A DNA stretch of 62,267 nucleotides, counting the filler, from Sphacelaria rigidula (lineage: Eukaryota), in the NCBI GenBank assembly GCA_964200075.2. It is 11 parts of 11 records of this genome, joined end to end, with 100 filler letters (N's around TTAATTAATTAA, not from the genome) between each part and the next. Parts side by side here need not be neighbours in the genome. Positions count along the whole stretch, not along the records: positions 22,681 to 28,250 come from CAXNAA020026244.1; 10 more parts are not named here. One strand, written 5' to 3'. Positions 4,681 to 61,829 of the stretch are shown here, piece after piece (within the stretch, counting starts at the first letter, position 1; each line of letters opens with the position of its first letter). The notes beneath the pieces are model-generated. The model saw nothing but the letters and a program-made list of their open reading frames with translations, was not told the origin of the DNA and made no database searches. The position numbers were made by a program, and so were the translations under genes.

Positions 4681-5299
4681 GCACCTCCCTTTGCCGATTG
4701 GCGCTCCCTCTCCTTGGAGTATACACAAAGTCGCCATCATCGTCGATAGCGCTGCGGGACCGCCGTCTATGCGTTAAATCCCTGCGCACGAAATTCGGCG
4801 CTACTCCCGCGTTGTTGCCATTATGGCAGACATTTCCAGACGCCTCACAGCGACGCTCGTCGTGTTGTCCATTGAATCCTTCGTTCCCAACCTGTACCCT
4901 TTGTGCTTCTTCCCTTGTGTTTCGGCAATCGAAAGCAAGGCTTCTACGCTCCCACCGCGCTCCCTGCACTCACACATCATCCATGTGTTTCTGTGCGCAC
5001 CAAGGTCTTGGCCCTCGTCCGTACTGTATATGGCCACCTTCTCGCACAGAAAGCTTGTAACACAAGCTTTCGATGCTGACGATCTCCCTTGCCGACTCAT
5101 ACCCAATAACGTCCGTGTGCCCAGAACCCTTGCATACGTTACAGCTGCAACGACACGCGATCCGGGAGTCATACCCGCACACTCTCGATTACCCGCCACT
5201 TGTACATCTCTTCTCGCGTACCGATCGCGCTTTACTTCTCTCATTATCCTCATTTACCCCCCGCCCCCCCGAGTGCGCCCCCCCCCCCGCCCCGCCCCC

Positions 5300-5418
5300 C
5301 ACGGCGCTCCGCGCTTGGTGATTGAGTGCGAGCCTACTCCGGCGAAAACCCGGCGTGCTCCGTCTCGGCTTTGTAGGGATGCGAGGTCAATGGTCTTATG
5401 GCATGCATGATCATGAGT
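5300..5418 (+). mobile_element. Family-A retroposon-like repeat, 5'-truncated copy
   Basis: Matches the 3' portion of the full copies at 27821-28093 and 47763-48064. Preceded by a poly-C tract. Confidence 0.85.
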
Positions 5419-5491
5419 TCACCTCCCTGCTTGCCAGCTATTTCTTGCCCTCCTCTCGACTGTCCGCCTCTCGACTGTCCTCCTCTCGATT

Positions 5492-5570
5492 GGTGACGCA
5501 CCCATGAGGCAGTGTAAACGCCGTGGCTGTCTCTGGAAGTGGCGACACCAGAAAATAAAGCAACTCATTG
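5492..5570 (+). mobile_element. Family-A repeat, 5' end (cut by contig end)
   Basis: Begins ggtgacgcacccatgaggcagtgt, the same start as 16860 and the reverse complements at 28093 and 48064. Confidence 0.85.
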
Positions 5571-10173: not shown

Positions 10174-10875
10174 AAGCAATGCTACGGCAGGAGTCCACTT
10201 TTGACGCAAAATCTTGTCTGGTTCAGGGGCTCCAAACGACTTTAGATGCACAATAAACACGGGGTCTCACAAATTGGGGATGGATCATTTATTGGGGATG
10301 AGAAACCCGGAGGATTAAAATCTTCGTATCCGCACCAAATAATCGAAATATGGTTCCATTTCTTCACCTACTGATAGCTATTGACAACTGCTACACGCCA
10401 TAGAAATTTGGATTTCGATCACGGGAATTCTGGGGTCCTGGGTGAAAAAACAGTTTTGTCGAATTCCGAGTGTCCGATCGGACGCCAAAATGGTTCCGAA
10501 AGTTTATTTCACCTAGGACCCCAACATTTCGGTGATCGAAATCCAAATTTCTATGGCGTGTAGCAGTTGTCAATAGGTATCCGTAGGTGAAAAAATGGAA
10601 TCACATTTCGAATATTTGGTGCGGATACGAAGATTTTAATCCTCCGGATTTCTCATCCCCAACAAATGATCCATCCTCAATTTGTAAGATCCCGTGTTAA
10701 TAGTGTGGGTGAAAGCATCCTCGTTTGCAAGTTCAGTCGGGATATTCTTCGTACTTTCAAATTACAAACTGGCGCACTCTCACATATTTCATCAGTCGTG
10801 TTTTGGGTTAGATGAAGGCAAAAAAACAAATTTTGACCCAGACAAAGAAAGTACGCCCCTACTGTAGTATCACCC
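10174..10875. mobile_element. GAG...CTC-family TIR element interrupted by a foldback MITE
   Basis: Left end gcaatgctacggcaggagtccacttt and right end aaagtacgcccctactgtagtatcaccc are imperfect inverted repeats. The left ~70 bp match 28181-28250. Confidence 0.6.
10256..10698. mobile_element. Foldback MITE (~440 bp, ~195-bp inverted arms)
   Basis: AACACGGG...CCCGTGTT termini with arms complementary nearly throughout. Flanked by AATA/AATA (or TAA/TAA if the element is 1 bp shorter per side). Second copy at 45914-46269. Confidence 0.92.
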
Positions 10876-11340: not shown

Positions 11341-11407
11341 GTCCCGGCTTTGTAGGGATGCGAGGTCAATGGTCTGATGACTACGGCATGCATGATCATG
11401 AGTGCAC
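11341..11407 (+). mobile_element. Family-A repeat, 3' end
   Basis: Ends gcatgcatgatcatgagtgc followed by acccccc. Confidence 0.85.
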
Positions 11408-13230: not shown

Positions 13231-13271
13231 TCAATGGTCACACGACTAAGGCAAGCAACAAATGAGTACGC
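13231..13271 (+). mobile_element. Family-A subfamily-B 3' fragment; also 48291-48357 (-), 49746-49811 (-), 50082-50150 (-), 50853-50922 (+)
   Basis: Shared terminus tcaatggtca.acgactaaggcaagcaacaaatgagtacg, followed by C-rich runs. Confidence 0.8.
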
Positions 13272-15253: not shown

Positions 15254-15519
15254 TTATCAGGTACGCGTACACATGCCTTTCACTTATGACCCAAATAACG
15301 GGATCAGCCTCCGTAGGGGACAGCCGACACCCCAGTACTCGGTATTACCGGCAATCGATGCTCCAGGTTCTCTGGGATACTCGGAATGGTTGGCAGTCAA
15401 TACTCGAGGAAGTCGAGAGTAATGGGTACGGAGAATAATTCAGAGTACGTAAACAATCGCGCCCTATCAAGTAGGCGGTGAAACGATATCGTCCCAGACC
15501 CTCACCCCCTTAGCCCTGC

Positions 15520-16025
15520 GTAGACCATGTGTGTACATAGGTGAAGTGTAAGAAAGACGCGGGGCCAACAACGTGCTGTTTTTTTCCCTAGATATACCGA
15601 AGGCCTGTGCCACAGTACGTATGGGGGAATGGGCTGAGGAATATCGATATATATATGCGAGAAAGCGGATCAGTGGGAAAATGTAGACAATGGTGAAAAA
15701 TATGACGAAATGTGCGACAAGTGCTATCGTGCTAGATGAGGAAATATCGAAATATGTTGATATTTTAAAAGGAGTTGTACAAGACTGTACGTCATCACCG
15801 ACCTTATTTAAGGTATTTGTTAGATAGCATGAGAATGACAGTAGAAGCATTAGAGGTAGGGTGCAGGGTGATGGAAGATATGGTGTCGGAATTGATGTTT
15901 GCGGGTGTTTCCATGGAGATATCCGAAATAACACAAGCATTGCAGAAACAGATTAGGGAGACGCTAGAATACACTGAGATATGAAGAGTAACAACGGACA
16001 CAAAAGGGTGCGCGATAGTTGTGTA
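15520..16025 (+). pseudogene. Non-LTR (LINE) reverse transcriptase fragment, decayed
   Basis: Frameshifted translation gives LDIPKACATV..GVVQDCTSSPTLFKVFV..SELMFAGVSMEISEITQALQKQI. These correspond to the RT motifs DxxKAYD, GVxQGCxLSP and FADD (mutated). Internal stops present. Confidence 0.88.
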
Positions 16026-16859
16026 GTAGTCAAAGTTCAACCAAAACACTTTCGGTTGAAAGCAATATTTTCAGTTTTTTCGGTTACCCAGACTCACCAC
16101 GGTTTCTATTTAATCCCACACTTGGGGAACCGAGGACTTGAGTACCCGACGTAAGGTTTTGCAAGAAAGTATGGTCTACGACCCATTTTGAACTAGATAC
16201 AGGCTCGCTGGTCTTCGCGGGTTCTGCGAGTGTAGAGCGCCCGGTTCTCGCTCGTGAAATATATTTTCGCTCCACCGAACCGATTTGTATCGTCATAACG
16301 TATAATTGTATGGGATCAGTTTGCCTATTTTCTTGGTATGCATTGCGCTGTATTCGACAAACCTTGCACGGTTAGGACGAGTACTCACGACTACGAATCA
16401 CCAAATCCACTATTTCTTCGGCCTGATTGCCCAAAAGGGAGAAAAAAGTTGACCGCTGGTCCAAGGGATATCCACGCAACTTTTGCGCCATTCCACGTGG
16501 TGTCTGGGCTGCGTGTACCTGGGTTGCACGCTGAAAACAAAGTCTGGGGATTGATTCGTACAATTCGAATCAATTATACTAAAACCAAGTGATTTCCAGA
16601 CGAATAATCATTTGTCCGACCCTTGAAACCTTATTTTTCGGCCACATGCAGCCAACAGTACTTCATCGATAATCGGGCTTTTATTCCGTATCGTTTCGAG
16701 AGCATAAAATTGGAAGATGTGTCCTCAGCACGACCTCCTGCTTCTTTTTGCAAGGCCTCCCAACTCTCCAATTCTCGAGTAAAGGTGACGAACGGTCTGT
16801 GAATAAACACGATTGAGACTGATACCGCGATAACCCCCCCCCCCCCGCCCCCCAGAAAT

Positions 16860-16910
16860 GGTGACGCACCCATGAGGCAGTGTATAAGCCGTGGCTGTCT
16901 CTGGAACTGG
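16860..16910 (+). mobile_element. Family-A repeat, 5' end
   Basis: Starts ggtgacgcacccatgaggcagtgta, a few bp downstream of a poly-C tract. Confidence 0.85.
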
Positions 16911-21360: not shown

Positions 21361-21514
21361 ACATACAAGCCGGACATCGAATGGATGGACGAGAAAGTTG
21401 TATGAACCATATATATATATATATGCTTGCACCATGCGGCGAACAAGCAAGATTTGATTGCATACAGGAAAATGGGCGAGGACGAATGCTCAAGATGCCA
21501 AGACCATGATTGTC

Positions 21515-22357
21515 GAACGGTTGACAGGGGGCCAGGAGTGTCCCTTGTGCGTGCGAACAGGTTGACAGAGATCCAGGATTTCCCATGTGTTTTCGAGCAG
21601 GTTGACAGGGAGCCAGGATTTCCCATATGTTTTCGAACAGGTTGACAGGGGAGCCAGGAGTTTCCCATGTGTTTTCGAGCAGGCTGACAGGGGGCCAGGA
21701 GTGTCCCTTGTGCGTGCGAGTAGGTTGACAGGGAGCCAGGAGTTTCCCATATGTTTTTGAACAGGTTGACAGGGGAGCCAGGAGTTTCCCATGTGTTTTC
21801 GAGCAGGCTGACAGGGGGCCAGGAGCGCTTTGTGCGTGCAAACAGGTTGACAGAGATCCAGGATTCCCCATGTGTTTTCGAGCAGGTTGACAGGGAGCCA
21901 GGAGTTTCCCATGTGTTTTCGAACGGGTTGACAGGGGGCCAGGAGTGTCCCTTGAGCGTGCGAGCAGGTTGACAGAGATCCAGGATTTCCCATGTGTTTT
22001 CGAACAGGTTGACAGGGGGCCAGGAGTGTCCCTTGTGCGTGCGAACAGGTTGACAGGGGGGCAGGAGTTTCCCATGTGTTTTCGAACAGGTTGACAGGGA
22101 GCCAGGAGTTTCCCATGTGTTTTCGAACAGGTTGACAGGGGGGCAGGAGTTTCCCATGTGTTTCCGAGCAGGTTGACAGGGATTCAGGACTTCTCATGCG
22201 TTTTCGAGCAGGCTGACAGAGAGCCAGGATTTCTCGTGTGTTTTCGAACAGGTTGACAGGGGAGCCAGGAGTTTCCCATGTGTTCTCGAACAGGTTGACA
22301 GAGGGGCAGGAGTTTCCCATGTGGTTTCGAACAGGTTGACAGGGGGCCAGGGGATTC
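21515..22357 (+). repeat. Minisatellite, 39-42-bp unit, ~21 copies
   Basis: Consensus gaacaggttgacagggrgccaggagtttcccatgtgttttc with interspersed variant units (ggagtgtcccttgtgcgtgc; gagatccagga). Confidence 0.97.
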
Positions 22358-23815
22358 CGATGCGTCTTAGAACAGCGCGAACGCCATTATATCCGAAGCG
22401 AGTAGGAACGATGCACAACAGCTGTGGGTACAAGCTGGAGTTTGGCCCCACAGTGCGACGTAATCGCTAGCAAAGCAAGGCCACGACCCAAGGTGGGAGA
22501 GTATGTGGCTTGCTGATCCTGTGTTCGGCTCGTGACTCAAACCGTATGTTTTTCTCATACAAGGGCAGTCGTCGACCGTANNNNNNNNNNNNNNNNNNNN
22601 NNNNNNNNNNNNNNNNNNNNNNNNTTAATTAATTAANNNNNNNNNNNNNNNNNNNNNNNNNNNNNNNNNNNNNNNNNNNNCCTCCAAACAAAGAGGGTAC
22701 CCAGGTTTGTCGCTAATGCACCATAGTATAGCCTACTGTGACGTTTGCCCAATATTTTTTACACTGGTTTTCCATCTAGAGCTCAGTAGTAAAATGCAGT
22801 ACTCAGGGAATCAGCCGTGTGTTGAACGGTTTGACTGGGTGACATGTCTACTATGTCTTGACTGTTATGACCTGATGGCCGATGCCCTCAGCGGGTAGTA
22901 TTTTCCGCTCATTTTTTTTCGTAAGCATTTGTGGGAGGAGTCGGATTTAATTTCAACGTTTGTTGCTGTGTGTGCGTGCGTTTTTCTTCAGTGTTACACG
23001 CGTCAGACAGCTCAAGCCACCTTACCCACAGTTGACTCATTTTCGTGTACCTCAAGCGGTTGTTACTCTCAATGGCCGGGTTATACCACAAAAGTGAGGC
23101 CATACATGAGTTGTCCCGCGTGTAATTTTTGCCGCCGAGTTTTTTTGTGTACATATCAGAACGTATTTTCCGAGTTTCTTTTCTCTATCTTGCGTGCATT
23201 CGTGTGCGTGTCTAAAACAAAACGCGCGTGCTCCTAGGCTCCCTTAGCTTATACCTTGTGTACTGTGGCGTCTAAAACCCTGAGCTTGAGCTCATATATG
23301 TGAATATATTCATGTGACCACGGATGGATCCCTCGGGGGGTTAGTTGAAGTGCGACAATCAAAGAATGAAACAATCAAAATGAATCAAAATAAGATGTAT
23401 GATATCTTGTGCCTGCGAGTGGGTTAGTAACACATGATATGACGTTAGTGTGCGGCAATCAAGCGACCAATCAAAACCAAACCGAGACGTGATATGTGTA
23501 TGGTTTTGAACATGCTAGCGTGAAAAAAACAGTCGGCTGACATCGATCGTTTAAAGTTGTCGTCTGCCACTCTTACATTGAGAGTGGTGTCGTCTCTGTT
23601 GGGTACCCTGACCGTCCGGTGACCTTCGTTTTAGCACTGCCCAAGCCGGGAAGAAAGACTCTTGTAGTCGAGGCCCCAAAAGCAACGCACAGAGCGCCGA
23701 AAGCGTGGCGTTCTTTTCCTGAGAGGCACCACCTTCCCCCTTGTACTATGCTTGTCGTTGCTCGCCTTCCCGCTCCGCGCTGGCCCCTCATGTGAACCCT
23801 TTGGGTTAATACAAC

Positions 23816-25254: not shown

Positions 25255-27820
25255 GTGAGCTGCGTGCGATGGGTTTGCCATGGCTGTGTCGACTGTGAGT
25301 TATTGTGTGTCGTCAGTCACCGTGACGAAATGATGGTAATCGGTGCAACGCGGATATTGGGTCTCTGTAACGTATAGTTCATTCGTCGTAGTTTTGCTCC
25401 GATGAGTACTGTAGGGACGAAAGTGCCTGGGGTAGAGTCGACACCGACACGGGGTATCCGAATTCTACGTAGCCTGGCCTGGTGTCCTCAGGATATGATT
25501 CTAAGTGATATCCCCAGGTACATACTCTCGAATTGTCAGCGTTCTCGGCCTTCGATACCCTAGGGACCCTTCGATATTCAGTACTGCAAGCATCCCCCGG
25601 AGAGTCAGGGCCCCTAGGGTACGGTACCCCCCTGTAGAGTTATCTTTGAAAAGCTGCGATTTAGTTGTCGAGATCCTGTTCGGTGTCCGGTTGTCGTATT
25701 AACCCACTATAGATGGGCACGAACTGAACAAATAGAGAAAAAAACACGTTTTTATGCATCCACCAACTAAAAATTAGAAAAATTGAAGAGGAATGTCCTT
25801 TACATGTTTTTTGAAGCCATGTCCACCGCGTGTTGTCATGTTTTTTTTTTTTTGTCGCCATACCTCCAACCCTTTCCGTTTCTCGGAACGAGCCCGTAGT
25901 CTCAAAGGATCAACCCTTATATCTCTCCCGGCGGACGCCTGAAAAGTCGTATCTGCGGATTGATTAGATGATTACTATCAGTACCTCCGTATCCCGTCGA
26001 TTCTCGCCGAATTTTCATTTGCTAATCACGTTCTCATACTTTCAACAAGGTAAACCAGATTCTGCTGGAAAATGGCAGATCTTTCGGGATTCGAATCCCC
26101 AACCTTCCGCCCTTGGTGGCTATTGTCACTTTCCAGTTAGATCACCGGTTCGCGGCGGTACATGTACCGTTTCATGCCCCGGTACCCAAAGGTGTTTGCA
26201 CTAAGTAGGCATGGAATGAAATGAAGAGAGCGTGCACGAACTAGACATTGAATTACACAAGGTGTACATGAAGTAGGCATGGGAACGACCGAAAATGACG
26301 CAACGTATCATGTGGATGGGTAACCGGCTACCCAACGAATCACCCTGCGGCAATGAATACGGCCAATAACACCCCCCACCGAACACACGGAAAAGGAAGT
26401 TTTGCCCCAAATTACTCCCGACAACACGAAATTGGCAAACATACACCGCGAAACACCGGCTAATTCCGTCCACAACTATCGATTGTAGAACTAAATGAAG
26501 AGAAGATGAAAAGAGATGTGCGAAAATATACCGAATAAATGATATTTTAAATCAAACGTTCACTACCGAACTTTCGCTGTAGGGATGAAGAAAAAAAATG
26601 CTTCTTCTCGTCAAACGCTGCTTCAGCGACTCCACCGAGAATCGTGTCGTTAGAAACGCCTCCTCGACATGTTTCGGGAAACGGATTTACCGTGTGGCAG
26701 CGTGTGGTCTTATTCCGGAAGGAAAAAGTAATTTATTTCCCCCAATCATTGGATTGCCCCTCTTTATGAGACCCGCGGTCGAAGGATGAAAAATTTCCAG
26801 TTAACCACGTATAAAAAGCATTAATTCCCCTGTGGTCTGTGTGGAGGGTACGTCACTGCGGTATCAGCTGCTGATGGTACTGTCCCACGCATAAAAAAAC
26901 ACCATCAACGTAAAAAATTGGATGGGAACAAAAGCCGAGCAATGATGTCCCTGTAATAAAGGTAAATAGGAACCGCCAGGAGGGAGAAAGGACATGTAAA
27001 TCTATTGATAGACCTGCATGAACGAGAAGCGCGGAGGTACCCATAACGGTTGCGCTTATAATCGTCCGTATGGAGTCTACAGTGCGGTGAGTTCCGTTCT
27101 GGCGAAATTTTGGGGGTCACTGTGGTCAGCCATCGCCGGCCATTGATGTGCGATATTACTGGAGATGTTTTGCACATGTGAAAGATATGTGACGTGGCGA
27201 CAATTGATGTGATGAGGTCGATGGTGGCTGTTCCATGGATGATGACGAGACCGATCACGAGGCAATGCATGATGACGACCGCAGCAGTAGTTGATGGATT
27301 GATTGGTTGTCGCAGTTTGACGGGTTCTCCGGGAATCCAGCCTTGACCACAAGGTGGACGTACGCGAGGTGAGCAGAACGGAAAGCCTCGCTGACGAAAA
27401 CTCGGAAACGGGAAATTGAAGAAACATGAGATGAGCGCTGTATGTGTGTGTTTTGACGTGGACTTGAAAGTTATCGTGCCGCGTGGCAATGACGGCAAAT
27501 TGTGATGGCGAGGATGATGACGATAATCAAATCAGGTGTCGATGGGGTGGGATGCTGAAGAGTCGACCCTGGCTTTACAAGAGACCAACGGCGATGTTTT
27601 GGCTGCCGCCGAGGCTCTGGCAGAAAAAGAAGAGGCGGATCTTGAAAGGTGAGGTACACATCGCGAGAGGCATGTTCCGAAAAATACACACAAACGGAGA
27701 CAACGCCCAAAACACCCTGCCGAAAAAACATTATACAAATACCTCGAAGGCGCCATATTGGAGTGTTTCCGCAAAAGGGCAACGCGGAGAGGTGGGAGGG
27801 GGAGGGGGGGGAGGAGAGAA

Positions 27821-28093
27821 GTACTCATGATGTTGCATGCCGTAGTCACGAGGCAATTGACCTCGAACCCTACAAAGCCGGAAGGGAGCACGCCGAGTTT
27901 TTGCCGGGCCACACTCGCCATCACCAAGCACGAAGCGCCGTGATGTGTTCGGCGAGTCGCATCAGGAGTGACCTGCGTCCTGCGAAGATTGTTCGGCCCG
28001 AAGCATACTAATCATCTCGCATATGAATGACAGCCTCGAATGAGCCACTTCCAGAAACAGCCACGGGTTACACTGCCTCATGGGTATTTCACC
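27821..28093 (-). mobile_element. Family-A repeat, near full length
   Basis: Aligns end to end with 47763-48064 apart from a small internal deletion. G-runs on both flanks. Confidence 0.9.
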
Positions 28094-28180
28094 GTGGGGG
28101 AGCACGTTGGTGGGGTTGGGGTTCAAAAAGTCCGGTCCACTAAGCAACTTTTACGGAGGAATTTCTCCCCATTTATACGT

Positions 28181-34020: not shown

Positions 34021-34231
34021 GGACGGAGCACGCCGGGTGTTCGCCGGACCAGGCTCGCACTCAATCATCAATCATCAAGCGCCGTGGTGTGTTCGTCCGG
34101 TCGCGTGAAGGGTGAGCTGCATCCTGCCAAGATTGTTCGGCTCGAGGCCTACTGATTGTCTTGCATTTGGATGACAGCCTACAATGAGTTGCTTTTTGTT
34201 TGGTATCGCCACTTGCACAGACAGCCACGGC
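34021..34231 (-). mobile_element. Family-A repeat, partial
   Basis: Matches 47830-48035; the truncated 5' end is fused directly to a long G-run. Confidence 0.85.
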
Positions 34232-40215: not shown

Positions 40216-41526
40216 GTGAGTGACGTTGAGTTGTTGGGGGAAGCAGAATTGCCCAGGTCGTTTTGACGAGAAAATCTTTTGCTGGCCCCAGGTCCAGCGT
40301 AGTCTGGGTTTTGGGCATCAGGTTGACTATAGTGTTTGGGAACACGAAGGAGAGAACAGAACGAAAGAGTGTTGCCTGTCTTCACACCTTTGATGTAGAA
40401 CATGTAGCCGTTTCCCACAATTCATGGGTAAGGTGTTCTGCCAACATTTGAAAATGATTTTTTCTTTTTCAAGTATGAAGGAATACGTGCGTGTGTACGG
40501 GGAAGTTGAAATTGTTCTGAACTATAATTGCGGAATGATTGGAGCTCATAAATCTGGGGATGTTACTCCAAACCGTCAGCTCACCTGACAACGTTTCGGA
40601 CGAACTCGTCGTCCGCCCTGATCCTGTCGTGTCCGAGGGCTGAAAACAGAACAGGGAGGGGTGCCGTGTGTCATTTTCAACAGTTTACGCTAGCGTTCGC
40701 AGCGGAGATATCTCAATGTTCGTGCCGAACCACCTGGCTGCAGACGTGGTGAAAAATATAGTCTAGCGAATCTCCGTGTACACCTGCCACCCGGATTCCT
40801 AACTCGTTCATCAGTACTTATTGAAGGAACAACAGCCTACCACCGGTCGGCCATGGCCCGAAGCTACGGTAGTTGAGTGCTGTGGTGCGGACGGCTTTTA
40901 TTGGGGGTTCTTGGTCAAGTGTATTTCGCATGTTTTGTTTCGTGTGTGTGTTTGTATTGCTGCAGATTGATATTGTGTCGAAACGTGCCGTCTTCTTGGA
41001 CCCGAAAACAAAGCAAAAAAAAAAACATCAAGGAAACAGAAGATATTGAACAGAAGAAAATAACTGAGCTGGTCGGAGGTGTGGCAAAATAAATTCATAG
41101 ATTTGCCAACATTGTAAGAGACCTCGAAAGACGTACTGTATTAGTAGGTGAAGCAGGAAGCGTATCTCTGGAGAATATATGGGTGCGAAGCGAGAGTCAA
41201 AACCACGTCCCCAGGTATCCACAGAAGAAAAAACACCACTCGAATTAGGTAAAAAGCCGGTAATGCTCTTGCGCGCATACTAGGTGGTGGGGGTATCTGT
41301 AACGTTTCGGCGACCTTTGATGGACACAAGAGGAGCTCTGGAGGTGGGATACACAGCAAGAAATTTCCTTTGCATGGTGTGCGTTGGTCGCATTCACGTG
41401 CGTGGCGGTTCAGTTTGTCGCGTACTTTTTTCTAACCCCTTCCTATACACCCTGTCACCGCTCGGAAACGGACGATGGGCGTCCACGATGTCGAGTATAT
41501 TCCTAGGGCGTAGCGGTTCTCCATGA

Positions 41527-41657
41527 CCTGGTGTTGAATGAAGGCGTTCCGCCAGTTGGCTCGCCCTCCTGTTCCCCCCAACCATTCCTCCGCGCATGAG
41601 CAATGGTCGGAGGAAACAGGAGGGTAAGCCAACTGGCGGAGCGCCTCCAACACCAGG
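41527..41657. ncRNA. Intronic imperfect hairpin, candidate miRNA precursor
   Basis: About 60-bp arms with scattered mismatches, a bulge and a ~7-nt loop, inside the V-ATPase e intron. The hairpin is certain; the function is inferred. Confidence 0.4.
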
Positions 41658-42685
41658 CCACTGAGTACTGCTCCGTCTCCGGGATAGATGCGACATTATG
41701 GACGCGATTAGTCCGAGATGTTCGTGAGTGGTGCCGAGGCGTGGAGGAAGAAGCTGAGGAGTACGTGCCAAACTGGACCACCACGCGCGTGAACGCGACC
41801 AGCGCGCGCCATGTAATGAGCTATTTGTTTTGTCACCACTAGGGTTCCCTCTTTGTCATTTGAAGGTTTGCCGACATGTCACAATGACCAATCACGTGGT
41901 ACGCTCGCTCGTGCGTTGACGATCTTTCCTTGATTTCATCGTTGTTTTTCTCTGTGGGTACCTGGGGATGTTCTGACTCTCGCTTGACATCCGTATTTTG
42001 TCCTGAGGTATACTCGGTTTACTTCCTACCAAGTACCTCTCCCGAGTTCCTTTACTTCATTGCGAGATCTGATCGGTGTGTTTTAATTTGTTTCACCGCA
42101 CCCCCGACCTGCTCGGGGCACAAACCATATTTCAACTGTTTTGGCAGTGACGATGTAATAGTGTAGACTTCGAGGTGCTGTTTTTTTTTAACGGCATACG
42201 GTTGAGTTTTTGCAGCTTTCACGCAAAACTATGAGCCTGAGGCGTATTTTCGGATCCCATATAAAAATGTGCCCCAGTGCAGCACGAGACTCCTTTTATA
42301 TGTAGTTGAGGCACGTAAGTACCAATTTTCGCTGTGCGCAAAGTTGAACACACTTGATTCGTTGCGTCACCTTATCGGACAATACTTTTCCGACCACACC
42401 GGGATGACATTTCTGGTGCTCGCGTGACGCATGCTGGTGGATTTTTCCATGGCCTCCCACCGTAGAAATGGTTGCTCAGGCTTTTCTGTTCCTATCTTTC
42501 CTTCCTTGTCACGGCTGACATGATGAGTGAGGCGTTTGACCGGGGGACGGAAGGGGAAGGGAGAGATCCTAACGGGTTAATACAAATCGTATGATGGCCA
42601 CAAAGCTGCATTTGTGTTGCATGTTTCACAATGCGTTTGCGTGCTTTTTGTCGCGCCTACTCCCCTCGTGATCCGTCCCCCACAG

Positions 42686-45260: not shown

Positions 45261-45431
45261 NNNNNNNNNNNNNNNNNNNNNNNNNNNNNNNNNNNNNNNN
45301 NNNNTTAATTAATTAANNNNNNNNNNNNNNNNNNNNNNNNNNNNNNNNNNNNNNNNNNNNAACGACGATCTGACTCGAAATTTCGAGCAACAAATGGCCC
45401 AAAATACCCCCCCCCTATCGTAGGATGACTC

Positions 45432-45907: not shown

Positions 45908-45913
45908 AAGTCT

Positions 45914-46269
45914 TCGAAATATGGTTCCATTTCTTCACCTACTGATAGCTATTGACAACTGCTACACGCCATAGGAATTTGGATTACGATCACCGAAATG
46001 TTGGGTCCTGGGTGAAAAACCAATTTCGGAACCATTTTGGCGTCCGTTCGGACACCCGAAATTCCCCAGAATTGGTTTTTCACCTGGGACCCCAACATTT
46101 CGGGGATCGAAATCCAAACTTGTACGGCGTGTAGCAGTTTTCAATAGCTATCAGTGGGTGAAGAAATGGAACCATATTTCGAAGATTTGGTGTGGATACG
46201 AAGATGTTAATCCTCTGGGTTTTTCATCCCCAATAAATGATTCATCCCCAATATGTAAGATCCCGTGTT
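45914..46269. mobile_element. Foldback MITE, second copy (left arm truncated)
   Basis: Collinear with 10343-10698; ends cccgtgtt. Confidence 0.9.
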
Positions 46270-46560
46270 TCTCGTCGAATTTTATGTATTTGATCACTTC
46301 TACGACGCCACATAGGTATTCCTTGACTAAGGATCCTACCCCTCCCCGCTCCCATGTTTTTGGGGTTCTGTCCCTTCCACGTTTTCCCTATCCATGCGCA
46401 CTGTACAGCTTTGCACCCTATTTCCGCCTTTCGTTTCTCCTATGACTGTAGAATTCCCGCTATATCTATGTCACGCTTACTGACATACTCGGCTATTTCC
46501 ATTTTTTTGCTCTCGTCCGTGACGAATCCACACACATTCCGCCATCCTGTTATCACCTTC
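46270..46560 (-). pseudogene. LINE ORF2 apurinic-like endonuclease N-terminus, decayed
   Basis: Translation GWRNVCGFVTDESKKMEIAEYVSKRDIDIAGILQS*EK...AWIGKT...GAGRVGSLVKEYL matches the APE motifs WNVxG, DIxxIQE and GGVGxLV. One stop; ends at the foldback MITE. Purine-rich upstream sequence to ~47070 is probably the same element. Confidence 0.8.
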
Positions 46561-47178
46561 CTTTTCGAATCATTTTCCAGTCTCCTTTTGTCTATTCTTG
46601 TCTCCCCGTCGTTTGTACTTTTGTTTTCCTCTGCTCTTCCCCCTGCCCTTTCCCATACGGGCAGTTATTCGTGCCTGCTTCCCCTTTCCTCCGTTGAACC
46701 GAGGGCTAACTCTTAGATTCGTTGTTCCCTGGGCTATGCATACTCTCCAATGTCACCCTTCTAAGCCGTGTTGACGCCTGATTTGTCTCCATCCGATCCC
46801 ACTCCTTGCTGGCTCTCCACTGTAGCGCGACTCGGAGGTGCTCTCCCTGCCTTTCTACTTCTCTGATTGCTAAACAGTATAGTTCTACTTCATCGCATTT
46901 CCTTTTCCAACTCTACTCCTGTCATATCGCCACGGACTCCAAATACCAGCAGTACCAGCACTTGACCCGTCCACTCTTTACTTCTCCGTCCACCCTTCCT
47001 TACCGTCTCTATCTCTCTCTCCCTCTCTCTCTCGATTTCTTTCGAGAGTATTTCCAGCTTGTTTATTTCGAATATTGAGGTGGGGTGCATTCAATGTACT
47101 GGGATATCCCAATCCTAGTGCTTGTTGGGGGTCTGGCGTCCTTCAGGTCTTCTGCTGGCTCACGGACACTAAATATTA

Positions 47179-47757
47179 CCTCCAACATGGGCTCGTAGCG
47201 TTAAGCCAAGTTCAATATCTTTGACACGAGTACCACGTTTGTGCCAGGCGACCTGCATGGTAAACCATCCAGGCGTCCCACGATCGTATCTTGTATCCTC
47301 TTGCTCCACTGCTGTACTGGTTCATTTCCTCCAAGGAGGTCATTTTCACCGTGCAAGGAAGGTCCAAGGACCGCTTGCATAACACAAAGTCTTACTCACA
47401 CATCCGGATATCCCGTACACCATCACCTCTTCCCACTGCATATACGGTTTCACGATGGGTCGCTAGTGGAGTAGCGACCCATAGTGAACCGTACGTGGAG
47501 TGGGAGGAGGTGATGATGTACGGGACATCCCAATGCGTGAGTAAGACTTTGTGTTATACGAGCCATTCTTGAATCGTCCTTACTCGGTGAAAATGACCTC
47601 TCTGGAGGAAAGTAACCAATACAGCAGTGGGGCAAGGAGATAGATAATACGATTGTAGGACGCCTGGATGGTTTACCATGCAGATCGTGGCAAAAACGTG
47701 GGGTACTCTTGTCAAGGGTGTTGAACTTGGCTTAAGGCTCGAGCCCGTGTTGGGAGG
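47179..47757. mobile_element. Long foldback element (~580 bp, ~285-bp arms, few-nt loop)
   Basis: Arms complementary along their full length with moderate divergence; centre atgggtcgcta-gtggag-tagcgacccat. Confidence 0.9.
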
Positions 47758-47762
47758 GGGCT

Positions 47763-48064
47763 GTGCTCATGATCTGGCATGCCGTAGTCATACGACCATT
47801 GACCTCGCATCCCTACAGAGCCGGGACGGGGCACACCGGGTTTTTGCCGGACCAGGCTCGCAGTCAATCACCAAGCGAGAAGCGCCGTGATGTGTTCGGC
47901 GAGTCGCATGAAGGGTGATATGCAGCCTACCAAGATTGTTCGGCCCGAAGCGTGCTGATAATCTTACATACGGATGACAGTCTCGAATGAGGTGCTTCAT
48001 TTTCTGGTCTCAACACTTGCAGGGATAGCCACGGGTTGACACACAGCCTCATGGGTGTGTCACC
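47763..48064 (-). mobile_element. Family-A repeat, full length (~300 bp)
   Basis: Runs from ggtgacacacccatgagg to atcatgagcac on the minus strand, with the 3' end next to a C-rich run. Confidence 0.9.
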
Positions 48065-50344
48065 CTTTTAACACTGCGTATATACAATAGTACGAGCATT
48101 CCCTTTGCGTGGAGTTGAGGTTCTCCACCCCGCACAATATGATCTAACTCGACCACCATCGTGGTTAACGCGAAAAAAACGCAAGCGACAGAAAAAAACG
48201 GTAGCCCGGTTGCCTTTCTTACGCAGTGAGTGGCGTGCTTTATAGTGCCTTTGCCATCCGACGCCAACCCCCGAAAGGGTGGGTGGGGGGCGTACTCATT
48301 TGTTGCTTGCCCCGGTCGTGTGACCATTGATCACGCATCCCTCTCGAGGCGGAGCGGGGGTGGAGGTCTCCAAACAATCGTACCCTGCACTGAATCGATG
48401 GAGGTGTCTCTAGGCATACCCTATGCTAGGTTGTTCCAGGGTTTAACTTGTCCTCGACAGCATCCATGGATGAGAAGGTTCATACCCAAACTAGTGCGGT
48501 CGCAGCAGCTGGGCCGCAATCTTCCCCCACGACCTTTCGCTTTTTACGACTGGGTTTGAGTTTGAGTCTGCGCAAGACCTTTTTCACCGAAGCCATAGGG
48601 CAGAGGCCGGCCATTTTGTTTTCCCTTCTTTTTTTTTCTTCAATTTCTTCTCTTGTGTTTCATTTCATTTTTCCAAGTCTCCGCTGTTGTTCTGTTCCAC
48701 CTCTTCTGTTCCTTCTTTTTTCTTCAGCGAGTGCTTCAATTTTTGTTTTGTCTCGGGTGCGTCTGTCACGTGACCGCGGCTGGATCCTTGGGGGGTCAAT
48801 GAAAAGTGCGACATTCAACCAATCAAATCAAATCAAACAAGCTGCTGAATGCGGAGGTCGTCTTCAAAAGCGCGACAAAAACAGGGCTGCGGGACGAGAG
48901 AAAAGGTCGCCATGCCCTGTTTGTTATCGCGCCCTGCAACAACACACCGTTTTCGCAGAGCAGTGGAAAACGGCCAGCATCACGCCTTGTTCCTTGTTGT
49001 GCTTCGCATCTACAGAAAATCTCACACCACCATTCCCGTCTCCAGAGTACTTGTGTTCTCTCTGGAATCGCGCTCCTCTGTACCGGTAAACACTTATCAA
49101 GCAAGACTCCGGTCTCCATTTCGAAGGCTGGAATAGTCAACCACAAGACGTTTTTTTCTCATTCCCAGGATGTCCATTAGTCAATCTAGGATCGAGACGT
49201 TGCATCTGGCGCCCCCAGGGCATTCGGACCCGGAGCTTCCTCTCTCAAAACAATCAGCATTCTCGGATGGTCGATCGTCAGTGTTTTCACAACCGGTGAG
49301 TAGTACTCTGTATGCACAAGAATCGAAAGTGTGTAAAACGAGCTGCAAAACCAAAACGTGTGGCGACAAACGGGTGTAGTAAACACGCTGACGAGACACC
49401 CGGTCAGCCGAACCCGGGTGATTAACTCGCATGTGTGTTGAGATAAGCTGACGAGGACTCCGAACCACGTCCTCGTCGTTTAGGTGGTCCTTGCAGGACG
49501 ATTCTTGTCTTTCTTTTTGAGTGGTACGATGATGCCACTAACAATACGTAGTATGTTCAAGCTTTACACAAGGCCTGGCGTTAGTTCCTTGTTACTGAGG
49601 GGGGGGGGGGGGGGGGGGGGGGCGCCTCGTTTTTTGTCGCGTTTTGTGTTGTCCCCAGGGACCCCCCCCCCCTCTCCCCGGCGCAACCGTTTTNNNNNNN
49701 NNNGTGTTCTGGTGGGTGGGGGGATGGAGGTGGTGCGCTAGGAGACGCACTCGTTTGTTGCTTGCCTTAGTGTTTTGACCATGGACCACGCCTCCCTTTC
49801 CAGACGGAACACTTTCTCGTTACGGGGTGGTAAAAGTGTCAAATGAACATCATAGAGTCACCGAAGCAATCGGACGAAGAATGTACGCCTCTCGCACGGC
49901 AGCACCGCCCGTCGTTTTGGGGCAATGTTGATATATTAGTGGATTGGTTATTTTTAATGATTGTCGCACATTCATTGATCTCCCCCAGGGGATCCAGCCG
50001 CGGTCACATAATAAGACGTACGCATCAAGATACAAATGACGGAAAATCTCGAAGAAGATATCATTATGAAGGGCGGGGGGGGCATACTCATTTGTTGCTT
50101 GCCTTAGTCGTTTGACCATTGACCGCGCATCCCTTTCGAGACGGAGCACGGAGCATATGGGAGGGGGGGGGATCAAGGCAGATAGAACAAATGGAGTATG
50201 AAGTGAAGCTCAACAAAAAACAGCGGCAAAAAGAGCGAGAACACAAGGGAAAAAAATAAAGGGGATCGAAAAGAGCGACAAAAAATTGTCCAGTGAAAGC
50301 ACTCCAGGTGGACAAGCCGCGCGCAAAGAACCAAAAATGCTCAG

Positions 50345-50601
50345 GAGTCGTACCACGGTTTGGAGTTTCAAAGTTGAACCCAGATGCTTTCTCGCTGAGG
50401 AGCTCCTAAACTTAGGAGTTGCACGAGAGATCGGGTCAGGATATTCCCGTTGTAAAAATCCGCTCGGGATATTCCTAGCTCATCGGAATGTTAATTCGTG
50501 GCGTGCCGACATATTCACAAGTAGTTTTTTCGAATGACACGAAGAGCCATTAGCAGTTCAAACCGGGGTTTTTTCTATGCACCCCTACCGTGGCACTACT
50601 C
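50345..50601. mobile_element. Degenerate GAG...CTC TIR MITE
   Basis: Ends gagtcgtaccacggt and accgtggcactactc; internal gagctcctaa. Confidence 0.5.
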
Positions 50602-50686
50602 CCAACAGGAGGTCGGGTACAAAACATTTAGTGTGGCGAGTCATGTATTTGCGCCAATAGCCCCCCCATCCCCCCACCAGGAGATA

Positions 50687-50721
50687 ATGGTCTGATTACT
50701 ACTGCATGCATGATCATGAGT
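50687..50721 (+). mobile_element. 35-bp 3'-terminal family-A insertion with an 11-bp target-site duplication
   Basis: accaggagata at 50676-50686 and 50722-50732 flank atggtctgattactactgcatgcatgatcatgagt. Confidence 0.8.
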
Positions 50722-51031
50722 ACCAGGAGATAGATGGTGGCCACAGACGGCGAAACAGGACGAGGATAAGATATGCAACAGGTTTTTGTGTAATGTATGG
50801 AAAAACTTAATGAGCACCGGAGTGTTGGAGGTGTCTCTACTAGGAGTAGGAACGGTGCTCCGTCTCGAAAGGCATGCGTGGTCAATGGTCAAATGACTAA
50901 GGCAAGCAAAAAATGAGTACGCCCACCCCNNNNNNNNNNNNNNNNNNNNNNNNNNNNNNNNNNNNNNNNNNNNTTAATTAATTAANNNNNNNNNNNNNNN
51001 NNNNNNNNNNNNNNNNNNNNNNNNNNNNNTG

Positions 51032-51163: not shown

Positions 51164-51549
51164 AGTCCTTGACAGATGTCCGTTGGTGGTTATTTTACTG
51201 AATGGTTTTGTGGTGGACGGAGCCACGGTTGTCTCGTCCAGGTAGGTCTCTGCGCCCCCATTTCTCTTGCAGAGCATTGATCGATTTGAAAAGGGTACGT
51301 ATTCCCCTTGATACCCTTCTCCCTACAGTCGTGTGCTTGCGCTAGGTGTCAAATTGTGTTATTTTTTCGTCAAAATGATGCATTAGGGGCCTTATTGATC
51401 GATGTCTCGCGCCTCACTCGTCCATCGCTTCAGTGATGATTGATGATTGGTCGTTTGGTTTCCCAGAAAAGACGCCAGTAAGGGTGTCATTGCTCGTGAC
51501 CATGAAATAGATGACTCAAGCAGACGAGTAACACCACGTGAAAAAGTGA

Positions 51550-52057
51550 ATGACTCGAGCGCGAGCACTCGAGTCATTGCTCGTTGTGGAAAAACGATTA
51601 TAGGGCGAGCACTCGAGTCATCGCTCGTTGTGAAAAAATGAATAGGGCGAGCACTCGAGTCATTGCTCGTTGTGGAAAAAACGAATAGGGCGAGCACTCG
51701 AGTCATAGCTCGTTGTGCAAAAAATGAATGGGGCGAGCACTCGAGTCATTGCTCGTTGTGAAAAAAACGAATAGGGCGAGTACTCGAGTTATCGCTCGTT
51801 GTGCAAAAAACCAGTAGTGCGAGCACCTGAGTCCCTGCTGCTTGTGAACAAATAAAGAGGGTGAGCACTCGAGTCATTGCTCCTTGTGGGAAAAACGAAT
51901 AGGGCGAGCACTCGAGTCATCGCTTGTTTGTTGTAGAAAAAAGTAATGACTCGAGCGCACGAGTCATGCTCGTCGTAGAAAGTAATAACTCGAGCGCACG
52001 AGTCATGCTCGTTGTAAAAAAGAGTAATAACTCGAGCGCGCGAGTCATGCTCGTTGT
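51550..52057 (+). repeat. Minisatellite of ~43-bp hairpin-forming units (~9 copies plus 3 variants)
   Basis: Unit aatagggcgagcactcgagtcattgctcgttgtgaaaaaa with an internal cgagca...tgctcg stem. Confidence 0.93.
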
Positions 52058-53067
52058 GTTTTCGAAAAACATAAACGAGTGATGGCTCGTCCGACGTATG
52101 AAGAATTACCATCCGTTCAAACTCATCCATTTTTTCAGTACATGTGTGCTTTTTCTTGCCTCCACCACTGGCATGTGCTTACAGCTACACGTCGATATCC
52201 AACTACAGAGAGCATTCGGGACCCTGTGGAGGGGCGTTTGTGAACAGAAACGATTCATTCTCTGCATTCAACGCGACTCCACTCCCAACATGCATCAATA
52301 ATGACAGACGAGATTCACGAGCTAGCGACTGTTTTTCCCTCATGTTTTACATCTTCGCATCAGGAAGGGCCAAGTGGATTGCATTTCCGGCCCCCACCCA
52401 CCCCGCCTCTCAACGAGAGGGGGTACCCTCTGCCGACACCACCTTGTGCACAGGATTCCACTTCTGTACGGGATTGTTTCCATCTGTTTCTTGTTTGGCA
52501 TTTCAGGGTTGACACCTTCCCCGCCATACTCAGAATGCATCATGAAAAAGTGGATACGAGGGTGTAGAAAAAAATTGAATGCCCACGCTCCAGAATATTT
52601 TGTACTCGAGTAGCCGCCATTTCGAGGCCTGTTGTTGCTGTGCATCACTCACATCTCGACACGGGTGGAGTTATCGCATCACGAGTCTCTCACCAACAAA
52701 CCATCAAAAATGATCGAAAAACAAAACGGTGAGAAGGCGAAAAACATTACATCGTGTTTCATCGGAATGCAAGAGCATGTAACATCGCATTCATTCTTGT
52801 GTTCGAGGCTTTCGTCGGAGGCGTGGGTCGTCCCTCACCCCGTGTATCGAATAAAAACAAGTCCCATATGATTCAGCAACACATGTCAGCTGCTTTCGGG
52901 TACAGTAGTTGAAGATTCTTCATTGACCGGTCGCCAACGCACACAAGCAACAGTAACGATGTCTAACCGCATGATTTGACATTATGAACGCACGATCGAG
53001 TGCTCAATGTACAACAGTTGTAATCTACCAACGCATGCTGTCATGCGCATGCATGTGGACAACCAAT

Positions 53068-53562
53068 ATGGCGAGCGGAAACACGACAAAATTCGCTCGC
53101 ATGGTGTCCGGACCAGGTCATCATAATCGGACAGAAACCGGACGAACTTGAAGACCCATCCGAGACCTCGACTGGCTTACTGTTTCTGCTAGCTCGAGTG
53201 CTGTGATCAGGTATATCCATGTGCATGTGAAAAAGCAAGATGGCGGGCGGAAACACGACAAAATTCGCTGGCATGGTATCCGGACCAGATCATCATAATC
53301 GGACAGAAACCGGACGAACTTGAAGACCAATCCGAGACCTCGACTGGCTTACTGTTTCTGCTAGCTCGAGTGCTGTGATCAGGTATATCCATATGCATGT
53401 GAAAAAGCAAGATGGCGGGCGGAAACACGACAAAATTCGCTGGCATGGTATCCGAACCAGGTCATCAAAATCGGACATTAACCGGACGGACTTGAAAATC
53501 CATCTTGGACGTCGACGGGCTTACTGTTTCTGCTAGCTCGAGTGCTGTGATCAGGCATATCC
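53068..53562 (+). repeat. Tandem repeat, 172-bp unit, ~2.9 copies
   Basis: Units start near 53068, 53240 and 53412; the first two are nearly identical. Confidence 0.95.
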
Positions 53563-54139
53563 AACAACCGATTATTTTCCAACAAGCAAAACAAGCACCA
53601 GGATTGGGAAGATGAACGTAACCAAAAATATGGTGCAATTGACCTCTAACGGCGGAAAGAGCTAAAACTAGCAGTACGGGCAAAACCACCGACGTCTACT
53701 GTATTATGAGGACACCACGAGTACTGACGAAATAACATAGAACTTCGAAGAAATCGCAGCAAACCTTGGAACCAATTCGGCAGGGTACCGAAAAAATACT
53801 GTACCTTCTCTAAAATCGATACGAGCTGGTAGTTGAGGAACCATTTCTGCACAAGCCTGAAGATGCCAACGCCGTGCCTCATCATGGCAATTCTCACGAA
53901 CAGCTTCCCCATCTTTGTTCACCATGAGAACGGCATCTCGATACGATTTGATCGCCGCCACTCCCGGCCTCTCACACCACCACCTCTCCTCTTCTCGACC
54001 TCCCAGCAACGGAGGACAACGGCATGGAAAACCAACTACGTAACCGACCACACGCAGCTAACTCGAACAAACGATCATAGCAAGAAGAGTCACTTTTTGA
54101 GCCTCCACCCTGACGAGCCTCGACACGCACGGGGATACA

Positions 54140-58322: not shown

Positions 58323-60561
58323 CTGATTGGGGTCGTTATCAACAGGAACTTATCTCAGAATTTTTCGACTTTTCCGGGGAAATTCCGACTCGGGCCGCTC
58401 CTCACGGCGAGCAATAAAAAAAATCCTGTTTTGATGCTTCTCTGGTCCTTTTGCGTCGTTTTACACCCTGAAAAAGAGGTAGGCGGAGTTTGACACCTTG
58501 GAATGTCTTGCCCTACTCGTTCAGACCGTCGTAGGACGTCTTGCCGTTTTCCGGTGGCCGCACTTTCCATTTTGCTTCAACATTTACGTTTTTGTTCCAA
58601 GGACTGTCAAGAATCGGCCAAACCTAACGACGATCGCCATTTTTTAATCTGAACTTGATCGTCTCGAGACAGAAATACTTGTGTGGTCAAAATAAATACT
58701 GCGGCCACCGGAAAACGCGAAGATGTCCTGGAACCGTCACAACGAGTAGAGCAACTCATTCCAAGGTGTCAAACTCTACCTGGCTCTCTTTTAGGGTGAA
58801 AAACGACAAACTATGGGTGAAAAAAAGCAGTTTCGCAGGAATACTTTTTTGTTTGCCATAAGGAGCGGCCTCACCGAAAAACAAAAACAAAACACGCCGA
58901 AGAACAACTAAACGATAGATTTTCCGAGTAATATGTTGTCACTTTGTAACTGATCTATCCCTTGACCTGGTAAATATGCCGTCTCATCTTCCGGGCAGGA
59001 AATGCTTTTCCCCGAAAAATTCTGGAGAGTTCGAAAAAAAAACCAGCCTCGTAAATACGACGCTTGTAAGCAAGACATGCCCAAGTGGAATTGAGTGAAT
59101 CTCGGGCGGGGAGGCGTGGAGAACGCGGTACGATCAACGGGGTCAAATAGCGTGTTGAGTGAGGTTTCTCTTCACTGCCACTACAGTAGAGGCTCGTCAC
59201 TGTGCTGTACTCATTCAAGCACGGGAAAAAATCTCGGAGGAACAAGTCGGGGTCTACGAATGCTTTACACGAGGAGATTTCTGGCCGATGAGCTATTAAT
59301 AGCTCCGTAGCGTCGATAGATACGCAGGATCTGGGGCTACTTAGGCGAAAGAGTCGGACATGAAATCACACCGACCCTTTACAACTCAAAGTTATCTTCA
59401 AGACATGTGCCCTCTGTGCGTGAAGCAGCGGAATCAGCACACGGGAAAAAAAATATATATATACTAGCTGTAGTAACGCTAGTTGCCGGTGACATCAAAA
59501 CCCTCGAAACCCGCCCTCTATATACACGCATTTGCCGGATTCGAGTGACTGGAATTCTCTTCCCGTAATACTTTTTTTTTTGCGTTCATGTTGATTCAGA
59601 TTTCTCATAACGCACATCATATAACATAAACGACCAAGTTCCACACAGCCTTCATTTTCGTGAGAAAGTAGGAAATTCTCGTCCGGAACGGGGGGGGGGC
59701 ATTCTACTACGAAGACCTGTACTCAGTACCCAGCCGAATACGATTCGTGGTTCACCAAACAAACATAGTAGTCGATCTTTGAAGTAAACATCTTCGCTTC
59801 GAACCGACTTTTACGGGTTTTCCGGTTATCACAACTCATCAAAAATTCTGTTTGATCTCAAACTTCGGGAATCGAGAGACATAAGGACCCGACACAAGTT
59901 TTGAGAAACTAATATGATTTACGACCAATTTTGAACCAGAGACGGGCTCATCGGTCTTTGAAGGGCCCAAGAGAGCACAGGCCCTGCATGTTACTCTTTG
60001 ATATTTTCGCTCGACCAAACCGGTCCGGATCGCTAAAAAGAACGATGCTGTGCCTTCAGGTTTTCTAATTTCTATATTCATTGCGCTTCAGCCGGAAAAA
60101 CGCGTTTGGGGACCATATGCGATCAATAACACCCCTCTCGATGAACGCGGTTTTACTCCGCGTCGTTCCGACAACAAAAAATTGGAAAAGGTGTCCTTGG
60201 CACGATCTGCTTCATTTTAAACGCCCACCGACTCTCAAATTCTCGAGTGAAGGTGGCGAATCTTCTTTGACAAATCCCGATTGAACGGATACCATATTTA
60301 ACGGTCGACTACTGTAGTGCAACCACATTCGGAGAATTACACAACCGTGTCGTGATCGCCTGAATTTTCGGGGGCGGGGGGGGGGGGGGGGGGCTTGCCT
60401 TGCAGCCGGGGGGCCAACAGGGAGGGGGGGGGCGGGGGGGGGGGAAAGGGGGGAGATCTGGGGGGNNNNNNNNNNTGGTGGCGCCGCGGGGGGTGGGTGG
60501 CGGGGCGGGGTGTGTGTGGGGGGGGGTGGGGGGGGGGGGGGGGGGGGGGGGGGGAGCTTGC

Positions 60562-60752
60562 CTTGCAGCCGGGTGCTCAACAGGGCGGTTAACGACGACC
60601 ATGGTGCCATCCTCCAATGTCCGGTAGTGCACGATGGTGACAAAGTCTCGGGCCTTGAAAGGAACATATCCAGGAGACGCAGCCCAGGCAACCTTGGTGT
60701 CAGCCGATAGCCGCTCTAAATCTTTCACCTCGCGGCAGTTCTCGTTGTACTC
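60562..60752 (-). CDS. START domain protein, internal exon (GC donor)
   Basis: Acceptor ttcccgcag; encodes EYNENCREVKDLERL...PFKARDFVTIVHYRTLEDGTMVVVNRPVEHPAA(R), containing the RDFV motif. Donor AG|gcaagc. Confidence 0.9.
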
Positions 60753-61608: not shown

Positions 61609-61829
61609 CTGGAACGAGTGGTTCGTAGTAGCCGGTCGATTGGAGGCAAGAGTTTGTCGCTGGATTAGGCACGCAGGGGAAAGGCTGATGGGATGAGTTC
61701 ATTACATTCAGTCGGCGCACGAAACACGGTGCATGTCTGACTTACAATGGTCGATTTCTGGCAGTAAAGTAGCGAACAATAGTAAAACTACCTTGAATTA
61801 TGATCATTATTGACGGGACTTTTTTTCAA

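Follow-up and report, generated by a model that had tools for sequence, protein, structure and literature searches.

A non-autonomous element of Sphacelaria rigidula that shares a head segment and its 3' end with an APE/RT LINE and is probably inserted at C/G runs

The repeat at positions 27821–28093 belongs to a ~560-nt non-autonomous element that has a head segment and its last ~52 nt in common with a single-ORF EN/RT LINE and is very probably mobilised by this LINE through target-primed reverse transcription (TPRT). At the core of the proposed mechanism, base pairing would join the C-run tail of the RNA to a G-run nicked in the target DNA. The sequence-only reading had described the repeat as a tailless, ~300-bp retroposon-like family with two subfamilies at C/G runs. 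The repeat is real, but it is not tailless, not ~300 bp long and not a single family.

The window is the whole stretch analysed (62,267 nt) and consists of 11 concatenated ~5.57-kb contigs of a 244-Mb assembly with 27,214 contigs. The random sample comprised 80 systematically spaced genome stretches (L128–L207; 764,499 bases), the short-element profile has 566 positions and was built on 28 long copies, and the hold-out set consisted of further element ends taken in contig order. Profile search of the window recovered 13 pieces, eight of the short element and five of the second type, which agrees with the ~13 copies originally counted in 5 of 11 contigs. The features of the window are as follows.

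27821–28095, minus strand: focal copy, a 5'-truncated non-autonomous element, profile positions 264–566 of 566 (nhmmer E 6e-84)
27790–27820, minus strand: C-rich tail/target tract adjoining the 3' end of the focal copy (seen as G-runs in the plus strand; G8 at 27804–27811)
28096–28125, minus strand: C-rich sequence on the 5' side of the focal copy, without a clean TSD
47763–48280, minus strand: longest copy of the non-autonomous element in the window, positions 58–566, starting at the LINE-like head segment (nhmmer E 7.5e-156)
48292–48355, minus strand: LINE 3' end, 64 nt, whose C-tail runs directly into the 47763–48280 copy (tandem array)
46270–47465, minus strand: end of the LINE 5'UTR and N-terminus of its ORF, decayed, matching P0002 residues 1–261 (tblastn; blastn 72% over ~1.2 kb to L101/L110)
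47465–47753, plus strand: inverted duplicate of LINE 5'UTR sequence, adjoining the 46270–47465 piece
5299–5418, plus strand: last 120 nt of the non-autonomous element, flanked by C-runs (profile search)
5486–5570, plus strand: non-autonomous element, start near position 260, cut by the contig end (profile search)
11341–11403, plus strand: 3' end of the non-autonomous element at a contig start, then C7 (profile search)
16856–16910, plus strand: non-autonomous element, start near position 262 after C13, cut by the contig end (profile search)
34021–34231, minus strand: non-autonomous element, positions 294–505, preceded by C23, cut by the contig start (profile search)
50685–50723, plus strand: 39-nt non-autonomous element inserted into a LINE 3' piece, with a 9–10 bp TSD
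50721–50920, plus strand: LINE 3' 200 nt, ORF C-terminus and stop, then G and a C-run (tblastn 70–84% to P0002 residues 1296–1360)
13231–13269, plus strand: LINE 3' end, 39 nt, between C-runs (profile search)
49749–49812, minus strand: LINE 3' end, decayed (profile search)
50085–50151, minus strand: LINE 3' end between C-runs (profile search)
45361–45431, plus strand: empty target, a MITE end with C9 (45407–45415), of a site class filled at 95 or more places genome-wide

At 46270–47753, the LINE 5' piece with its ~290-bp inverted UTR duplicate follows immediately on a short element and a LINE 3' end. When four sequencing runs were compared with 47000–50929, no empty allele appeared among the joints listed. 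The window also holds a decayed RT fragment at 15517–16023 (36–53% to P0002, perhaps from another LINE family) and tandem repeat arrays at 21510–22375, 51541–52058 and 53049–53563.

Sixteen full-length copies of the short element measured 538–584 nt, and the 47763–48280 copy extends ~215 nt beyond the supposed 5' start, so the ~300-bp length was not confirmed. The fixed 3' end, ..ATGAGTAC, was confirmed together with variable 5' truncation: 31 of the 47 short-element profile hits in the random sample ended at position 500 or later of 506, and their starts were scattered. The 21 short-element 3' ends in this sample correspond to an estimated ~6,700 copies genome-wide and the 32 LINE 3' ends to ~10,000; the short element made up 0.9% of the sampled bases. 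Exact 21/22-nt termini were found 2,909 times for the short element and 3,663 times for the LINE across the genome, with 0 for reversed controls. Short-element copies lie ~10% from the column majority. A family member was present within 45 bp at 8 of 63 unbiased ends, on the same strand in six. In contigs of four other public runs, each with a different organism label, both the entire short element and the LINE head are represented at 80% likeness or more, so the element is not confined to this assembly.

Four copies had been thought to share one 5' start. Three of these starts (5486, 16856 and 28095) hold up and fall at a truncation point near position 265 that recurs among copies, but the fourth, 48064, is internal to a longer copy. 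Starts near positions ~5, ~60 and ~265 were preferred (3, 8 and 7 of 31 unbiased starts), and at least two of the eight near ~60 are LINE heads. Separate subfamilies for the three starts were rejected on 13, 19 and 11 copies, a comparison of low power in which the tree was star-like and no column was diagnostic at p<0.003. Since the 3' part common to all start classes does not divide them into clades, the preferred starts probably reflect recurrent stopping or the use of alternative RNA starts. At short-element positions ~52–70, the 8 nt that precede the head core set copies with a start near position 60 apart from full-length ones (A at −2 in 12/18), a hint of a distinct shorter form despite the lack of diagnostic sites in the 3' part.

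The ~330-nt body of the short element matched neither 23 LINE loci nor the P0002 protein, and beyond the tail no protein match to P0002 was better than E 0.17; the element is non-coding. An HNH-like frame was noticed by eye in the body. Among the 30 best hits to the 5' half, chosen for covering it, common upstream sequence was absent except for neighbouring family members. The whole short element folded no better than its shuffles (z −0.55), and a viral contig search returned one chance pattern match without a protein relative.

Upstream of the second-type 3' ends, a walk led from a Cys/His knuckle to an RT and then to an APE endonuclease. The second of the two proposed subfamilies is therefore the 3' end of an autonomous LINE, the kind of RT element that the sequence-only reading had suggested looking for. 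Its description of the family as a non-tRNA SINE or a LINE-like terminus was right in outline, as the pieces include a non-autonomous element as well as genuine LINE termini. L093 and L097 carry APE motifs, RT and a C-terminal Cys/His knuckle, and broken LINE pieces matched Pfam Exo_endo_phos and RVT_1 below the curated cut-offs. A LINE fragment was 63–71% identical to Ectocarpus proteins (four of nine matches so named), which points to a brown algal host. The intact relatives P0002 (1,360 aa) and P0004 (1,328 aa) have both domains and the same C-terminus as the LINE; P0002 matched L1 ORF2p at E 7e-21 and R2 at E 9e-20. Search of PDB sequences with the EN domain gave one weak match, to exonuclease III (E 0.059).

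At the EN/RT catalytic positions of the genomic copies, the most frequent letter is the catalytic residue itself (for example N in 26/33, E in 28/33, D in 19/25 and H in 21/24). No intact LINE ORF was found among the 59 matches listed (34 of 13,414 candidates scored), in which all long ones carry stops; together with the ~10% decay of the short-element copies, this gives no sign of current activity. The LINE is estimated at ~5.6 kb (from L110 and L093), its 5'UTR contains an array of ~60-bp tandem repeats in variable number (L099, L101, L117), and its stop codon lies within the final ATGAGTAC. A second LINE with the exact tail of the short element was considered and dropped, as 2 of 117 sites fitted P0008 better and neither was convincing. 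Among 14 window ORFs searched against Pfam, a START domain alone exceeded the cut-off; this exon (PF01852, E 4e-6; 60480–60848, minus strand) adjoins long G-runs.

The two families are alike at both ends. The last ~52 nt of the short element match the LINE 3' end with 74% mean identity (16 × 30 decayed copies), and a 5-bp stem with a variable 4-nt loop occurs in this common end in 12/16 short-element and 28/30 LINE copies. Head positions ~62–108 match LINE 5' ends with E down to 4e-9; the two best matches are 85–88% identical over 41 nt, and mean identity between decayed copies is 73%. The LINE 5' end was recognised as a fixed head in 13 copies and 30 further hits, one of which is the query locus itself. 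In 30 full-length LINE heads (L229–L258), C occupies 80–97% of positions −5 to −1, often after a non-C spacer, suggesting that the LINE RNA itself begins with C's. At L231:1520–1575, contigs of four other runs jump back 55–56 nt with a short spacer, which places the LINE head core in tandem.

A LINE-derived tail, TSDs and a fixed 5' start would also be expected of a true Pol III SINE that joins an unrecognised small-RNA head to a LINE tail, and a 6-bp terminal helix can form across the first ~135 nt, with a T-run behind it, as in a Pol III unit. This reading is nevertheless unlikely, since the core of the head corresponds to the 5' end of the LINE itself and the expected promoter is missing: with generic box patterns, A boxes matched at six scattered places in 44 heads and B boxes once in 16 copies, none of them conserved. 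Pol III stops at T-runs, and a run of at least four T's within 200 nt in 44/44 heads (at least five in 41) would halt it ahead of the tail. Rfam searches of the window, eight element loci and 10 LINE-head loci, together with ARAGORN, gave nothing on the element or the heads, and no tRNA, 5S, 7SL or other small-RNA head was found. Judged by eye, the LINE and the short element differ in a helix between the 5' end and CTAG in ways that preserve pairing; within 35 heads, none of 26 pairs covaried. Therefore, given the LINE head and tail, the missing A/B boxes, the early T-runs and the lack of Rfam or ARAGORN matches, the short element is a LINE-derived non-autonomous element and not a Pol III SINE. 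The earlier observation of no poly-A, no TIRs and no clear tRNA A/B boxes holds, and tRNA and Rfam matches are absent as well.

Positions ~1–50 are repeated at ~445–480 in 12/16 full copies (72–93% identity), forming a ~46-nt internal direct repeat. Such a repeat could be the remnant of a pseudo-LTR, which would make the element a Penelope-like non-autonomous one of the Chlamys type; the tandem arrays and the (C)n targeting reported for Chlamys (PMC8557442) would fit as well. This is very unlikely, as the repeat is not terminal and both ends of the element are common with an APE+RT LINE, not with a GIY-YIG element. A simple pattern for the hammerhead core and an HDV-like descriptor matched 0/16 full copies and 0/29 LINE heads, a weak result because the descriptor lacked a positive control. 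The Penelope-like suggestion of the sequence-only reading is not supported, as the partner encodes APE and RT. LTR and TIR elements were rejected too: the ends are asymmetric, with fixed 3' ends and scattered starts, and the TSDs of 9–22 bp do not have one fixed length.

The 3' end carries a family-specific base followed by a (C)n tail, so the element is not tailless. Short-element ends mostly have A at +1 (59 A and 2 G of 90), whereas LINE ends mostly have G there (68 G and 6 A of 104; p=2e-28); in the hold-out set the +1 base was A in 27/30 short-element and G in 25/30 LINE ends. C follows at 79–90% over five positions and fades over ~20 nt. At least four C's in +2 to +7 were found at 52/62 unbiased 3' ends against a background of 4.3%, and in the hold-out set 28/30 and 25/30 ends passed the same four-C test. 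Genome-wide, NCCC followed 2,138 of the 2,909 exact short-element termini (73%) and 2,973 of the 3,663 LINE termini (81%), with a background of 1.7%. At LINE ends the chance of a further C was 0.91–0.95 for five steps and then 27/40, a step that was unclear in the hold-out set. On the 5' side, C4 was present within 25 nt in 108/142 elements against 6.9%. The C-rich sense-strand flanks reported earlier are thus far above background on both sides. Short telomere-like TAACCC/GGGTTA repeats were seen within contigs, in the 3' flanks of L024 and L027.

Exact TSDs of at least 10 bp were detected in 15 of 136 testable elements, and shuffled pairs gave a mean of 0.7 and a maximum of 2 (60 shuffles); the hold-out set gave 12/49 against 0.3 by shuffling. 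TSDs of at least 9 bp begin with C in 15/18 cases and end with C in 2/18. Most elements, the focal copy included, have no recoverable TSD (121/136 and 37/49 below the threshold), a loss that is expected at ~10% decay. A few insertions have a TSD and no C-run (L037/L330 and window 50685). A fixed TSD length was considered and rejected, as no negative correlation was found (rho 0.12, n=15 including one spurious row, L367).

The distinction between targeting and making of C/G runs was drawn at a 256-bp MITE (L389:1501–1756) whose terminal repeats contain a G/C run and which ends in a C-run, mostly C9, before fixed sequence. The genome contains 1,569 exact MITE ends, and at 95 of them an element 3' end lies 1–14 nt before the fixed sequence, with ~1 expected by chance (estimated from the sampled density). 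Of 36 filled sites examined, 14 were resolved, 21 were not (18 with less than 100 nt upstream before the contig end) and one was spurious. All 14 resolved sites had a C-run on the 5' side and 5–12 nt of the MITE end duplicated. The inserts were 24–308 nt long and came from both families, with 2–15 C-rich bases on the 3' side; at 3/14 sites the pure C-run was longer on the 3' side than on the 5' side. Comparison of filled with empty paralogous sites thus indicates that the C-run pre-exists, is duplicated and is sometimes lengthened. Other foldback (MITE-like) repeats lie at 10249–10705, 45908–46270, 41163–42010, 58455–58807 and 61828–62267, the first two 85–88% alike.

The proposal that the family targets C/G tracts is therefore supported, and the proposal that it generates them stands in part. 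An existing run is duplicated on insertion and at times lengthened, but of the 72 C/G runs of at least 12 nt in the random sample, 56 lie more than 30 bp from a mapped element end. At least 16/72 lie within 30 bp of one, in zones that make up 1.1% of bases; this is a lower bound, because internal LINE breaks and other families were left out of the map. Runs of A/T of this length number 16 in the same sample, in a genome of 50% GC.

This excess of long C/G runs, and their presence at 23/70 contig termini against 6.6% internally, could point to sequencing or assembly artefacts (poly-G calls) at repeat edges. An artefact is hardly credible: the runs track element orientation on both contig strands (1,081 forward and 1,057 reverse), they form TSDs and exist at empty sites, and C/G-rich loose ends adjoin the element in contigs of other public runs. 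The suggested contribution to contig breaks is real but minor, with the element at 8/70 contig termini against 2.1% of internal windows.

The observed features comprise the anatomy, the shared ends, (C)n after a family-specific base, C-led TSDs, pre-existing C-runs and conserved EN/RT motifs. From them we infer, as the best model, L1-type TPRT with C/G replacing A/T, in six steps whose nick positions and promoter are read from junctions alone. The RNA would be transcribed by Pol II from the LINE-derived head, and the ORF protein would bind the common 3' end at its short stem and variable 4-nt loop. The G-rich strand would be nicked inside the G-run, and at least 3 G of the primer would anneal to the RNA C's beside the terminal A or G. 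The other strand would be nicked 5–12 nt past the run with no evident sequence preference, giving TSDs of roughly 9–22 bp, and synthesis would often stop after 25–70 nt. Each insertion leaves C-runs at its two ends, and these would seed tandem arrays.

The third step has two readings, since a G-run preference of EN and selection at priming are indistinguishable from junctions alone. With the same pair of elements, EN may have little G preference: nicks, or breaks associated with G-quadruplexes or replication, would be widespread, and G-run ends alone would prime through C-tail pairing. We give this variant a little under an even chance. The C count at the 3' junction of one target class varies from 2 to at least 13, so the nick is not fixed; 5' flanks with two C-tracts (88/142) or four (32/142), raw counts taken without a background rate, and the TSDs without a C-run point the same way. 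By contrast, TSDs of 9–22 bp and conserved EN catalytic residues fit staggered nicks made by EN. The other reading, a base-swapped L1 mechanism in which the APE endonuclease itself recognises G-runs (possibly G-quadruplex-prone) and the RNA is bounded by C-runs at both ends, is possible but more doubtful. In this reading, because C occupies 80–97% of the positions just before LINE heads, unit RNAs may be cut out of tandem read-through transcripts within C-tracts. If true, every insertion would supply fresh targets, which would go some way towards explaining why long C/G runs are so numerous.

The system is already known as annotation in Ectocarpus (RTEX-1/2/N1), and what is new is junction-level evidence on site choice. 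In PMC12477816, RTEX-N1_Ec32 is a ~600-bp family, the most abundant in Ectocarpus, with 6,116 copies and 2.48 Mb; 'Sower' occupies ~2.5 Mb there (PMC3145265), and by equal genome share the two are probably the same. Like RTEX-N1_Ec32, the present element is a ~600-bp non-autonomous one with thousands of copies (est. ~6,700, ~0.9% of sampled DNA), a ~60-bp 3' end common with a LINE, weak homology to the 5' end of that LINE, copies in tandem and a C-rich TSD. Every listed trait of RTEX-N1_Ec32 is found here, a likeness established on traits. The present element differs in length (538–584 nt, against 604–607) and is older (~10% from the majority). The available parts of PMC12477816 contain no junction analysis and leave the origin of the RTEX-N1 head open; in Sphacelaria a LINE origin is clear for part of the head.

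In the supplement of that paper, RTEX-1/2 and RTEX-N1 have a (C)n 3' end and a C-rich TSD. The present LINE resembles RTEX-1 and RTEX-2_Ec32 (RTE-X clade, 5.5–5.9 kb) in these traits and in its single EN-RT ORF, but it has no intact copy among the matches listed, and its RTE-X placement is a putative one based on traits. PMC3747384 describes RTE-headed non-autonomous elements (MAR4, RTESINE1, Bov-A2 and RTE1-N1_LA) and RTEX tail repeats in green algae. The short element shares with the former a LINE 5'-end head, a LINE 3' tail and the lack of a tRNA promoter. Unlike them, it carries its LINE-like head ~60 nt from the start, after a duplicated copy of a subterminal 3' segment, and for ~330 nt of its body there is no match to the LINE DNA or to the protein used in the search. 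An insertion bias to (C)n is shared with the Chlamys Penelope-like elements (PMC8557442), which have a GIY-YIG endonuclease and pseudo-LTRs, whereas the partner enzyme here is APE. We found no paper on a C-tail/G-primer LINE mechanism in a search made mostly without subscription literature and Repbase.

In the L1 scheme of PMC7617806, the bottom strand is nicked, the primer anneals to the homopolymer RNA tail and a later top-strand nick sets the TSD length. The junction pattern of TPRT and the frequent 5' truncation are common to human L1/Alu and the elements described here. The difference is a C tail on a G primer instead of an A tail on a T primer; in addition, the LINE here has no 3'UTR, with its stop codon within the last 7 nt, and the 3' sequence common to both elements points to stringent recognition. 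A single multicopy MITE end, invaded independently dozens of times and also present as empty paralogues, forms a natural experiment that separates targeting from making and maps both nicks. A G-run-priming APE LINE would thus be a useful contrast to L1 for the roles of endonuclease and tail-primer pairing in target choice.
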